A DNA stretch of 64,000 bases from Neophaeotheca triangularis. Lineage: Eukaryota. The notes under the pieces were generated by a model. It was not told the DNA's origin. It did not search any database and saw only the letters and a program-made list of their open reading frames with translations. Shown here one piece after another: positions 4,712 to 9,007 of this stretch; within the stretch, counting starts at the first letter, position 1, and every line of letters begins with the position of its first letter. Made by a program: the position numbers and the translations under genes. The stretch lies in assembly GCA_054600435.1 (NCBI GenBank), contig BAAIJX010000011.1, forward strand, positions 186,001 through 250,000, in the 5' to 3' direction.

Positions 4712-5703
4712 TCAAGACCTCTCAGAAGCACTGTCATCGACCCTCTTGGGATCTCTCTCGGCATCCCGCTGCGCCATCTCGCGCTGCACTTTCTGCGACT
4801 TGCTGCGGCGGAAGAGGAAAAAGACGGCCGTGGCGATGAGAGCGAGACCCGCGACGGAACCGACGACAGCGCCGGCGATGGCGCCGTCGGAGATGCCGCT
4901 GGAAGAGGAAGAGGAGGTGTCATCGTCGGAAGAAGAAGAGGAAGAAGAGCCGGACGAGGACTCCTGGAAATCAGAAGCATCGTGCGGCGCCTCGCCATCC
5001 TCACCCGTAGTGGTGACATCCACATCCTCATCGACCTGCACTTCGGGCTCACTGACTGTGGCATTGAAGCAAGGGATGCTCTCGTCGAAAGCGGACAGTT
5101 CGACAAACGTGACGTCGGCGCACGCGTAGTGCATTTCGCCATCGTCGGCGTCGAGCCAGAACATGCTGAAAGTTGCGTTGTCGCCTGCTGAGGCCTGGGA
5201 GGAAGAGGGCGAGTCGATGGGGATGCAGGTGTGGCCTAGGTCGAGGGAGCCGATGGAGGTGGGGGTCTCCAGGGATTCGAAGTCGTCCCAGTCTTGGGGG
5301 TCTGGAGGCAGGGGGTTTAGAAGGTGAGGGTTTTGTTTGGGGAAGGGTATGGGGGGTGGCTTGGCTTACCGTTGGAGTAGGAGACGCTGATGTGGACGGC
5401 ACTGGTGTCGTCTTGGGTTACAAGCGCGAGGCGGCCGTTGGCTGTGCGGGTTGAGTTGTTAGCAGGGAGTCTTCTTTCTGCCTGTGGCGGGCGCTTCGAC
5501 TTACAGAGAGGAAATTCAGTCCTCTCTCTAGGCCCGCTGGTGGAACCGCAAGGGGCTTCAGTGGAAGCATCCTCCGACCACTCGCGGGTGGGGGGCCACA
5601 TGATCGAGCCGGCGGCCATGGTGTCGGACTCCATGGACTGGGCGACGGCATTGCTGGCGACCAGAGCGCCAAACAGGGCGGCGAGGTGTGTCTTCACGGC
5701 CAT
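4712..5703 (-). CDS. Secreted, single-pass membrane protein with BIM1/X325-like (copper-acquisition-factor-like) domain; 3 exons (5703-5505, 5441-5370, 5301-4712)
   Basis: Signal peptide MAVKTHLAALFGALVASNAVA; motifs WPPTR, APCGS, RTEFPL, GHTC, NAT, YACADVTFV, PCFNAT; Ser-rich stalk; TM segment GAIAGAVVGSVAGLALIATAVFFLF followed by RR. Introns 5442-5504 and 5302-5369 are GT-AG and restore the frame. Family assignment is from motif recall. Confidence 0.75.
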
Positions 5704-6131
5704 TGTTGATGGTGGGTATTGAAGTGAAGAGAGGAGGATGTGACAATCTTTGAAGACTCGACTCTCGAAGCAGATGATGCCAAGGTGGTTTTTGCGACGT
5801 GAAGACCTACCAACGTGAGCAGAGGACCACGGGGATGTGATATACCTCTGAGAGTGACGTCCTTGGCTTTCGCAGGTAGCTACCATCCTTCAGTGCGAAC
5901 ACCTGATGTTCAGCCCTAGCTCCGCCAAGTCGTTTTCGATACTTTCTCGTAGCGAGAAGCGCTGGGCGACGAGCCCGCTATCAGGTCCGCCAGGTCCCTT
6001 CTACACGCGCTCACCGTTGGTAGAGCCCTCTGCTGGAGCTCTGAAAGCTTGCTTGGGGCTTCGATTCGCTCCGATAGCGCCGCAGTGGTTGCTTGGGTTT
6101 TCAGGAAACCTGATGGGATATGAGCCATCTA

Positions 6132-6576
6132 ATCTTATCAGATGGACGTACTGGTGAAAAATCCAAATTAGTACGCATTTGCCAAGTCACTCGCGTTATT
6201 GCATTCCAAGCGAGGGTTCCAGACACCGGCATATCCCGTCGTGGTGATTGAGACTGTTAGGTACCTAGTGAGTGTTCACAGGGGGGTCAGGAGTCAGGAG
6301 TCAGTCAAGTGAAAACGTACCATCTGATAAGATTCCAGGTTAATCTAATCAGATCCCGAATTGGTATTGTTAGGCGAGGTCCTCGTTAAGTGTGGGCTTT
6401 CATTGACTGCCGCCATCCTGGTAACTTCCTGTTCGGGTAGCCAATTTCTGGGCGCCAATCCCGCTTTCGGAGGCTTTTTCTCTGGCGTTTTGTCTTTCCA
6501 AGGCTCTACCCAGGTAGTGACCGTTGCTGCGTACATAACATCTGATTAGATGAGGGAAATTTTCATCTTATCAGAT
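6132..6576. promoter_or_regulatory. Cluster of five ATCTGATWAGAT boxes (SreA/Fep1-type GATA iron-repressor motif) in the divergent promoter
   Basis: Copies at 6132-6143(-), 6322-6333(+), 6343-6354(-), 6540-6551(+), 6565-6576(-). Three contain the exact ATCWGATAA consensus. Confidence 0.75.
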
Positions 6577-7060
6577 GCCTGGTTGGTCCGACATTGTCGC
6601 CAGATCAGACCTGCATGATTCCTGCCACGCCATTAGTTCTGCACTCATGGCTACAGTACCTTACCGGTCTCGCCTGCTTCACATGTGCACTTTTCCTCTG
6701 GCGATGTCGGCTTGTTTTGTCGGCGTCGTTGTAGCCCTACCTAAGATACCTTGTTGTACCCTTAGGGCTGGCCATGGCGACTTGCCATGACTCTCTCGCC
6801 CATGTCCGTTTGACCCCATTCCCAACAGAGTCTTGGCAGACTCATAGCAAGTCGAGCTGGCAGTACCTAGGTAGTTCCGGACGTGAAATCTTGAATCTTG
6901 GGAGTCCATGGCTCTCCTGGAGGGAAGTCGACCGTGCGCAAGAGAAGACCCGGCAGGGTACATATTCTTTTGACTTCGCTCTTGACCTGCTTGCTTTCTT
7001 ACTACTCGGTACCTCTACTTTCAAGACCAACACAGTCGTTATCAAAACCAACCAATAATA

Positions 7061-7986
7061 ATGCCTTTCTCTCCAGTCGTTGTCGGCGCTTTCGCCTCTC
7101 TCCTCGTGGGCGCCTCTGCCTCTTCCGGTCTTGTCGCTCGGGAGCTACCTCTGCCCCACCTTGTGCCGATTGAGAAGCGCCAGGATGTCTCCCCGGAGCA
7201 GTACCAGTGCCACTCCAACTGTGGTAAGTCGTCTCCCTCCCAGTATCAGCAGAGCTGTGGTCGTCTACCTAACCCCCATACTAAGACGATTGTTAGGTAA
7301 CGCCATCTTGGACGCAGACGGCGACCACTGCGATAGCTCTGACTGGAACGAGCTTTACTCGGGGTGCATGGAATGTGCCGAGGAGTTTGGCATCTGGCAA
7401 TGGTACCAAAGCGGTGTGACCGAGGCGGCTGAGGAGTGTGGTCTTGATGCCGAGCCTGTGGAGGCGGATGGCGACGACGACGAAGACGAGTCGCCAGCTG
7501 CCCCGGAGCCTGAGCCCACCGTTGAAGAGACCCCGGTGCCTGAGGAGACCACTGCCGTTGAAGTCCCTGTCCCCGAGGAAACCACAGTCGTCGAAGAGGC
7601 CCCTGCCGCTGAGACCAACACGGTTTCCGAGGATATTCCTGCCGCCGAGGAGACTCCTGACGTCGAGGAAACCCCCGCCGCCCCAACTGCCACCGTTGCT
7701 CCCGTTCCGGAGCAGCCTGAAGAAGACGCTGCCCCTGTTGCCACCGCTACGGAAACTGGTATCTGGGTTGGCAACGACACCGCACCCGTGCCCACCTCCA
7801 CCGCCACATCGCCCGCCCTTCCTGAGGAGGTAAAAATCCCCACCTTACTACAAAAAGACAAGTAAGCGAGACTAACTCATCCATCTTTAGTCTGACGACC
7901 CGATGGAGTTCGACGGTGGCGCCAGCGCCATGGGCGCAAGCTGGGTGGCTGCCATTGGTGTGTTGATGGCTCCTTTCTTGGTTTAA
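7061..7986 (+). CDS. GPI-anchored cell-surface protein with a 6-Cys N-terminal domain and acidic Pro/Thr/Glu stalk; 3 exons (7061-7223, 7297-7829, 7891-7986)
   Basis: Signal peptide, Kex2-like KR, then QCHSNCG..HC..W..GCMECA..IWQWY..V.EAAEECG. C-terminus FDGGASAMGASWVAAIGVLMAPFLV* resembles a GPI signal. Introns 7224-7296 and 7830-7890 have CTAA branch sites. Confidence 0.85.
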
Positions 7987-8680
7987 GTCTGCTGGCAATG
8001 AAACAATGAAACCGAGCCTCATTTGGTGTTCTCGAGGTCGTCCGGTCGGGGACAACGGAGTAGTTTTACTTTCTCGAGTGGCATGACGTGTGCCCCTAAT
8101 ACCTTGTTATGCAAGGACTTGCTAGATGACCGGTGATGAGGTCCTTGTGTATATACCATTTGTATAATAGCCATGCTTGGATTTGTCGTTCATCCTTGCA
8201 CTCGTACGCCCATGGTGATGGTGCTGGGTTTGGTCTGTCATTTGCTGAAGTGCAGTGCCGCGTGCGGGTTGGACTGTTGATCCATCTGATTAGATAGATG
8301 GTGAGCATAAGGTTGGGGGTCAGCCGGGACATGTACCTGTCACGATAGCACTACTGATCAAAAGCACAAGGATCATGGGAGATTTCACGATGGACCTCAG
8401 ATGCGTAATGTACCTAGGTACTCTGATCGACGTATAGAAAAGGTGCCTTGCAGGCCTGGCAAGCAGTTGAGAAGAGATCAATCGAAGAATACGTAGTAGC
8501 CAGTGTAAGTCACCCTCGCCGCACTCACAAGCGTAAACCGTTCTAGAACTTTAAACTTCAAAAGGATTGGTAGTGTGTACCCATCATCAAGCAACGAAGA
8601 GCCAAACAGCCCCCCGAAGTCCACCTCGAGGCACACCACTCTCAAACCTCTCCAGAACAACTCCCACAACCTAAAACAAA

Positions 8681-9007
8681 ATGTGCCACAAAGCAGTCTG
8701 CTCCACCTGCCGTAAGCCCGTCCACGCCCATTCCACAAAACCCAAGCTCCCATACCCTCACCCTACCGCTCCCCCACCCCATCGAATACTACTAACCCTC
8801 CACCTCCGCTCCCTCTCAGAGAAAACAACCTGGTTCGGCTGCGGCGCCCACGTCCCCCAAGTCCTAGACGCCGTGCCCGAGCCCGAGCGCTGCGACTGCG
8901 AACCTCGCGTCGAGAAGAGCGGGAAACAGTACCCACCGATGGGTAAGTCTGCTGCCGAGTTGGCGCGGGAGAAGGGGCCGAAGGTTGGGGTGGGTATTGG
9001 GTTGTGA
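8681..9007 (+). CDS. Small conserved Cys/His-rich protein (~72 aa after splicing; exons 8681-8711, 8820-9007)
   Basis: Spliced product MCHKAVCSTCQKTTWFGCGAHVPQVLDAVPEPERCDCEPRVEKSGKQYPPMG... In-frame 108-nt intron 8712-8819 (GTAAGC..ACTAAC..CAG). Confidence 0.8.
   Translation: MCHKAVCSTCRKPVHAHSTKPKLPYPHPTAPPPHRILLTLHLRSLSEKTTWFGCGAHVPQVLDAVPEPERCDCEPRVEKSGKQYPPMGKSAAELAREKGPKVGVGIGL

Follow-up and report, generated by a model that had tools for sequence, protein, structure and literature searches.

Divergent surface-protein genes under SreA-type boxes in Neophaeotheca triangularis suggest a so far undescribed unit for capturing iron, possibly as heme

We investigated a 64-kb stretch of fungal DNA from Neophaeotheca triangularis (contig BAAIJX010000011.1, positions 186,001 to 250,000, forward strand; hereafter the window), in which three spliced genes, A, B and C, were modelled between positions 4712 and 9007. 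Genes A and B encode a predicted transmembrane (TM) protein and a predicted glycosylphosphatidylinositol (GPI)-anchored protein, and they diverge from a shared promoter region that carries five boxes of the type bound by the repressor SreA. Our results point to A-B as an undescribed iron, possibly heme, capture unit. Judged from genome sequence, A and B are a conserved divergent two-gene unit of filamentous ascomycetes, and the two genes are very probably co-regulated through repression by SreA. The pair is laid out as follows (positions are those of the window).

Gene A: exons 5703-5505, 5441-5370 and 5301-4712, minus strand; spliced model of 286 amino acids (aa)
Shared divergent promoter region of A and B: 5704..7060, 1,357 bp; equivalent spacers are found in 12 distinct homologous loci
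Gene B: exons 7061-7223, 7297-7829 and 7891-7986, plus strand; spliced model of 263 aa with six Cys

Both models are letter-for-letter identical to database proteins (P0001 for A and P0050 for B), whose locus tags are adjacent (g0826/g0827) and whose source label is N. triangularis. To place the pair in other fungi, a 28-sequence alignment of gene A homologues was scanned against metagenome contigs, with one of the two patterns favouring TM forms. The scan yielded at least 68 loci, 29 with a BIM1 domain and 39 with a TM match only, the latter serving as controls. A gene B-family profile matched in 14 of these loci, always on the opposite strand and upstream of gene A. Among the listed BIM1 loci with at least 1.49 kb of upstream sequence, B was divergent from A in 14 out of 15 (the other 14 of the 29 were too short upstream to be counted), compared with 0 out of 39 controls. 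The exception (L032:5854-6726) is a GPI-type BIM1-like gene without His1 on an AT-rich, yeast-like contig, and it has neither B nor boxes. Merging L037/L056 and L048/L049 leaves 12 distinct pairs, and since four of these are Cladosporium-like they represent fewer independent lineages than 12. The A proteins of the 12 pairs are nearest to Dothideomycete (Cladosporium), Eurotiomycete (Aspergillus/Penicillium) and Sordariomycete proteins, and the flanking gene families vary among the 10 paired loci scanned. Adjacent tags, which say nothing of orientation, also identify named pairs in Verticillium dahliae (VDAG_05721 is A, VDAG_05722 is B) and V. longisporum (HYQ45_001047/001048). The motif ATCWGATWA is present in all 12 A-B spacers, with 25 sites in 15.8 kb compared with four in 97 kb of the same loci, and Zap- and Cu-type motifs showed no clear enrichment. 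Cross-genome synteny and conservation of the boxes, both proposed as checks in the initial annotation of this DNA, are thus borne out.

Within the window itself the box motif, ATCTGATWAGAT, occurs in six exact copies, five of them inside the spacer at 5704-7060. Shuffled sequence gave a mean of 0.32 copies and a maximum of two, and allowing one mismatch revealed no further copies in the 64 kb. The boxes are listed below.

Box 1: 6132-6143, minus strand, ATCTGATAAGAT
Box 2: 6322-6333, plus strand, ATCTGATAAGAT; inverted pair with box 3
Box 3: 6343-6354, minus strand, ATCTGATTAGAT; inverted pair with box 2
Box 4: 6540-6551, plus strand, ATCTGATTAGAT; inverted pair with box 5
Box 5: 6565-6576, minus strand, ATCTGATAAGAT; inverted pair with box 4
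Box 6: 8284-8295, plus strand, ATCTGATTAGAT; between genes B and C

Four of the five spacer boxes are therefore arranged as inverted pairs, and the initial description of divergent surface-protein genes across a 1.36-kb spacer with five boxes agrees with our measurements. The further claim that the boxes have the SreA/Sre1/Fep1 consensus ATCWGATAA is exact for three of the six copies; the other three read ATCTGATTA. Six GCCARG sites, of the PacC/Rim101 type, also lie in the spacer. With 40 such sites in the 15.8 kb of A-B spacers and 129 in 97 kb of the same loci, their density is about 1.9-fold higher in the spacers, a weak difference obtained without a shuffle control. An alkaline-pH input to the spacers is possible.

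Further support for SreA control is provided by the distribution of the motif across the 25.4-Mb genome, which contains 32 exact copies compared with 16 for the reversed control, six of the 32 being those at A-B-C. Of the other 26 copies, 24 were retrieved as loci, representing 20 distinct places, and the seven longest open reading frames (ORFs) were scanned in 21 loci. Iron-regulon gene classes were found at seven of the 20 places: an ornithine monooxygenase (sidA-type) gene (L020), major facilitator superfamily (MFS) genes at three places (L001, L007, L012), an MFS gene with an esterase (L028-030), an AmcA/Cgr1-type pair in which a mitochondrial carrier gene diverges from Cgr1 (L025), and a Cys-rich bZIP that matches PDB 7aw7 (E 8e-7) and is presumably HapX-like (L011). 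The MFS genes at L001, L007, L012 and L028-030 (Pfam MFS/TRI12) resemble siderophore transporters, and we found no PDB match supporting that identity. The remaining 13 places lack a gene of an iron-regulon class, roughly as expected by chance. The genome also holds a gene with two GATA fingers and a Cys-rich middle (G000:C22, L225), an architecture that we take to be SreA-type, and no box occurs at its two His1-type BIM1-like paralogues (3.4-kb loci). Overall the box motif is predicted to mark the SreA regulon in N. triangularis. Two other boxed places are worth recording. Near an autophagy gene, three box copies stand at an exact spacing of 66 bp (L003-L005; G000:C5:589927-590070), probably as a tandem repeat, and a bacterial-type solute-binding protein domain lies about 370 bp from a box (L027:475-1134).

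The same motif, ATCWGATAA, is the SreA motif of Aspergillus fumigatus, and one of the SreA-regulated gene clusters (SRGCs) of that fungus, the mitochondrial carrier and Cgr1 pair (SRGC8), is boxed here too (PMC2610380). Unlike A-B, no SRGC is described as a surface-protein pair. SRGC1 is also a divergent pair, Afu1g03350/Afu1g03360, with a promoter of about 1.63 kb as taken from the motif positions in Table S2; iron represses both genes, both depend on SreA, and Afu1g03360 has not been characterised, but one SRGC1 gene is described as an alpha-1,3-glucanase (PMC2610380). SRGC1 is at most a candidate for the same pair as A-B.

Protein A had been described as a BIM1/X325-like membrane protein, and the sequence agrees with this. 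Its predicted layout is a signal peptide, a BIM1/X325-like beta-sandwich (residues ~29-172), a Ser-rich linker, a TM helix (~232-254) and a cytoplasmic tail of ~30 aa. The protein matches PF20238 in two exons (56.1 and 35.7 bits against a cut-off of 27; E 7.5e-15 and 1.5e-8), and its best solved relative is LaX325 (6ibh), both by profile (E 8e-13) and by Foldseek on the predicted model (E 1e-6), which has a mean predicted local distance difference test (pLDDT) score of 61 and domain blocks of 47-92. The histidine brace, however, is absent. Its first position is Ala31, where homologues have Pro or Ala, with no His between residues 7 and 82, and LaX325 His49, which we take to be the second brace ligand, aligns to Asp77 when its position is counted from the profile alignment (Asp in 71% and Glu in 15% of 85 homologues). 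Since both brace histidines are missing, the copper analogy with Bim1 fails at the level of the ligands. His114, Tyr149 and Asp153 are invariant (85/85), and Met29 is found in 86% of homologues. A TM helix and tail are present in all 85, the query pattern having favoured TM forms. Beyond basic stop-transfer residues the tail is short and unconserved; Lys occurs in 82 of the 82 tails measured, a weak indication, since such a place would carry basic residues in any case. The TM match (PF21314) is just at cut-off, and no WSC or Mid2 domain was matched in Pfam at E up to 1. Among 97 homologues, four are called 'cytokine inducing-glycoprotein' by the source and many are called 'WSC2'; our analysis suggests that 'copper acquisition factor' and 'WSC2' are the wrong labels for A-type proteins.

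The comparison with Bim1/Cbi1 of Cryptococcus neoformans and with LaX325 (PF20238) is instructive. Protein A shares their domain and fold, but X325/Bim1 proteins bind copper by a histidine brace and Bim1 is GPI-anchored (PMC10952591, PMC9258870), whereas A has neither His1 nor the second brace His and ends in a TM helix and tail. Bim1 is copper-controlled, while A lies under SreA-type boxes with gene B as a fixed partner. A His1-type Bim1-like gene of N. triangularis (L099:1372-2272, G000:C4) is divergent from an ORF that, judged by eye, resembles a metalloreductase, and is the probable copper counterpart of the A-B module. In Rhizoctonia solani, protein P0246 combines PF20238 with PF04145, which we take to be Ctr, and is either a Bim1-Ctr fusion or a merged gene model.

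Protein B was expected to be a 6-Cys GPI protein, and the sequence of B and of its relatives is consistent with this. A signal peptide and a pro-region ending in KR are followed by a 6-Cys three-helix domain (~45-105), a Glu/Pro/Thr-rich stalk and a hydrophobic, GPI-like C-terminus. No Pfam match was found. A HMMER search gave 127 relatives at the 50% cluster level (a word-index search returned B alone), and the named relatives among 20 looked up are all from Pezizomycotina. Of 80 full-length members, 65 have the hydrophobic GPI-like end and 51 a dibasic site ahead of the domain. His51, just after the first Cys, is present in all 80 homologues that contain the first helix (47 others lack the segment or the pattern), Tyr91 is invariant in 92 aligned rows and Trp88 is near-invariant. 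The structure prediction called for by the initial annotation gave a confident three-helix bundle (pLDDT ~97 over residues 51-110); from the up-down-up order of its helices, His51, Trp88 and Tyr91 should share one end. Fold comparisons were negative: no Foldseek match reached E 0.001, a PDB profile search gave no match, and the best result of a VIA-wide fold search (Z 6.6, root-mean-square deviation 2.7, 65 residues aligned) was to generic helical proteins. These negatives do not show that the fold is new. One B member bears an automatic UniRef CFEM label; however, B has six Cys where CFEM has eight, and PF05730 (CFEM) matched none of 92 members at E 0.1, so B is not a CFEM domain by either of these measures. 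CAP22-family clusters (PF28223) had Atlas feature scores of 0.79-0.80 for B, which is a lead only, and no CAP22 match was found in the Pfam copy used, which may not hold the PF28223 model.

The explanation we favour, though tentatively, is that A and B are repressed by SreA and act as a two-protein relay that captures iron at the cell surface, the likeliest ligand being heme. SreA would repress both genes through the one shared promoter, so that they come on jointly when iron is scarce. B would be cut at the KR site, GPI-anchored and extended into the wall by its long stalk, where it would catch the ligand at the His51/Tyr91/Trp88 site at one end of the disulfide-locked three-helix bundle and hand it to A. 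Protein A, an X325-fold domain without a copper brace that would be fixed in the plasma membrane by its TM helix and Lys-bearing tail, would then pass the ligand on to a transporter or to endocytosis. We infer the ligand, the A-B contact, the direction of transfer and the uptake route from the features described above.

Heme is our leading guess because of the His/Tyr site of B, a lead from Cig1 and the analogy to the CFEM relay. Like Cig1, A would be an iron-starvation surface protein, and the two are of similar size; the name of Cig1 is borne by the four A homologues mentioned above and we presume Cig1 to be a member of the same domain family. Cig1 is known as an iron-induced, heme-binding surface protein of Cryptococcus, and the parts of the papers available describe no partner gene for it (PMC13535237, PMC12797982, PMC12329525). 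In the CFEM relay of Candida albicans (Csa2, Rbt5, Pga7), a disulfide-rich helical domain on a GPI stalk likewise passes its ligand towards the membrane (PMC12153323), but B differs in its cysteines and in lacking a CFEM match, and the membrane-side partner has the X325 fold. When the domains of A and B were modelled in a complex with heme, without alignments, the result pointed neither way (score 0.10, mark 0.34). A bolder version holds that this is a previously unrecognised heme relay of filamentous ascomycetes without CFEM-related parts, built from a new 6-Cys His/Tyr hemophore family and a brace-less, X325/lytic polysaccharide monooxygenase (LPMO)-like membrane heme receptor; we regard this as conceivable, with the odds clearly on the other side.

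Several points weigh against a heme relay. N. triangularis and many of the fungi with the pair live as saprotrophs or in association with plants, and heme is not so evident a source of iron for such fungi. The genome already contains eight CFEM-domain matches that could serve heme uptake, and its weak heme-oxygenase match has no box nearby. The conservation of His and Tyr may instead serve the structure of the disulfide bundle, which at 60 residues is perhaps too small to enclose heme. That A is homologous to Cig1 is only a lead, drawn from transferred names, and Cig1 is described as GPI-anchored while A is a TM protein (PMC13535237, PMC12797982, PMC12329525). Finally, PMC3722221 lists An01g14820, the A. 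niger homologue of A, as a wall sensor of the Wsc2-like kind.

The same SreA-controlled pair could alternatively hold a ferri-siderophore or ferric iron in the wall for siderophore transporters or the reductive system, for which the Fit1-3 mannoproteins of yeast are a model. The box shared with siderophore genes of N. triangularis is consistent with this, as is the Asp/Glu found in 86% of 85 A homologues at the LaX325 His49 position, which stands beside a conserved Gln and makes an oxygen-rich site suiting Fe(III). One paired locus lies near an MFS/TRI12 gene and another near an esterase and an MFS gene, but such neighbours were found at just two of 10 paired loci, the MFS gene at L039 being a putative siderophore transporter at most, and the invariant His and Tyr of B would suit heme better. 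We therefore consider a siderophore or Fe(III) ligand rather unlikely. A role in the wall during iron starvation, with A as a Wsc/Mid2-like wall or ligand sensor, B as its wall partner or an adhesin or masking protein, and no iron carried, is less likely again. The order of signal peptide, Cys domain, Ser-rich linker, TM helix and tail in all 85 A homologues (from a search that favoured TM forms) would fit a sensor, as would the 'WSC2' source names (also PMC3722221), the influence of Cbi1/Bim1 on wall remodelling (PMC9258870) and the CAP22 lead for B; against it, A has no WSC-domain match, a short and little conserved tail and a TM match that only just reaches its cut-off. It is very unlikely that the pair gathers copper in iron starvation for the multicopper ferroxidase of reductive iron uptake, performing the function of Bim1 through other ligands. 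Protein A does have the LaX325 fold, Met29 and His114 might bind copper in principle, and copper is needed for high-affinity iron uptake (PMC9258870). However, both brace positions are gone, a separate His1-type paralogue is kept in the genome beside the metalloreductase-like gene, and a CuRE-type motif occurs in only 2 of the 12 spacers. Divergent pairs can also last through shared regulation, and A and B might be joined merely by a bidirectional iron-responsive promoter while serving unrelated processes. This we find highly improbable, as the pair is kept across three classes while all other neighbours change, and the predicted location of the two products, the cell surface, is the same.

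Equally improbable is the original three-gene model, in which gene C supplies the intracellular metal chaperone of the A-B system. The gene is the last feature of the region.

Gene C: exons 8681-8711 and 8820-9007, plus strand; predicted 72 aa with 6 Cys and 2 His

The metal-ligand-rich product suits such a role, and an exact box precedes the gene: box 6, about 298 bp past the gene B stop, lies 386 bp ahead of the gene C ATG, close to the ~390 bp first reported. But a gene C homologue was found in none of the at least 68 loci listed, which include all A-B pairs, and there is no box at the two gene C paralogues of N. triangularis. The family is well represented in Actinobacteria (at least 116 stretches, with 80 loci fetched). 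We scanned one to three neighbouring ORFs per locus in 44 of these loci and found rhodanese, TauE, CsoR-type, sulphur-transport or YgaP-like neighbours in 17, thioredoxin alone in two more and an iron-uptake family in none. Because C is unlinked in the loci and its actinobacterial relatives often have a persulfide/redox operon context, C is probably a neighbour outside the A-B module, and the chaperone proposal is not upheld. The product resembles a small redox protein of the thiol/persulfide or zinc-binding type. Box 6 thus falls outside the conserved unit and may provide local SreA control of gene C in N. triangularis. As an observation in its own right, the gene C family comprises small Cys/His proteins without a Pfam match, is common to ascomycetes and Actinobacteria and is often found near persulfide-detoxification genes; the gene C intron is 108 bp, frame-preserving and stop-free. 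The outer neighbours of A-B-C are a Rad21/Rec8 gene and a Prp3 gene, so no iron gene adjoins the three, in agreement with the initial finding of no adjacent transporter, reductase or siderophore gene. What remains of the proposed co-regulated capture system is the A/B pairing, the boxes and the motif at iron-regulon classes, and what is lost is the membership of gene C.

In a quick gene A tree, the N. triangularis sequence falls together with those of Sodiomyces and Verticillium and one copy from Colletotrichum, and this group is nested in a larger clade that also contains Cladosporium, Septoria, Zasmidium and a basidiomycete, Ceraceosorus. A single clade for the four Dothideomycete rows was rejected (p-AU, approximately unbiased test, 0.009; the grouping was picked after seeing the tree). 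The pattern would reflect either transfer between classes or hidden paralogy, and Colletotrichum holds a second gene A copy. The nearest named match of B is in Microdochium, so co-transfer of A and B is not shown.

Iron-repressed GPI surface proteins that aid heme or siderophore uptake include Shu1 of Schizosaccharomyces pombe and Fit1-3 of Saccharomyces cerevisiae, which A-B may resemble in function and which are not known to have an X325-fold partner. We found no description of the A-B pair in the open literature, where transcriptome tables and supplements, like closed papers, may already show its iron regulation. The V. dahliae, Penicillium and Colletotrichum locus tags tried had no match in the open literature, whereas An01g14820 and AFUA_1G03360 each had one paper. 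Searches in one supplementary file each of PMC10602907, PMC6126142 and PMC7144946 gave no match, and a search of RNA runs listed no holder. No open paper joining 'cytokine inducing glycoprotein', iron and SreA was found, and none among the open-literature listings states a homology of Cig1 to Bim1/X325, a link that closed papers may state. The kind of system, iron-repressed surface capture proteins, is thus known, while its parts and their coupling appear new.

Heme uptake by moulds is an open problem, and questions remain for A. fumigatus according to a 2025 review (PMC12153323). The present analysis offers two named candidate genes with residues that can be mutated (His51, Tyr91 and Trp88 of B; His114 and Asp77 of A) and a likely function for a widespread, unannotated GPI family. 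Among named fungi, gene A occurs in Verticillium, Fusarium, Colletotrichum, Sporothrix, Penicillium and Aspergillus niger, and of these it is Verticillium alone in which the pair is shown. If the heme relay is correct, the X325/LPMO-like fold would serve both copper uptake (Bim1) and heme uptake (A, possibly Cig1), and A and B may have passed together, as one cassette, from one fungal class to another. Even if heme is the wrong ligand, A-B would belong to the SreA regulon as a conserved unit that seems to have been overlooked.

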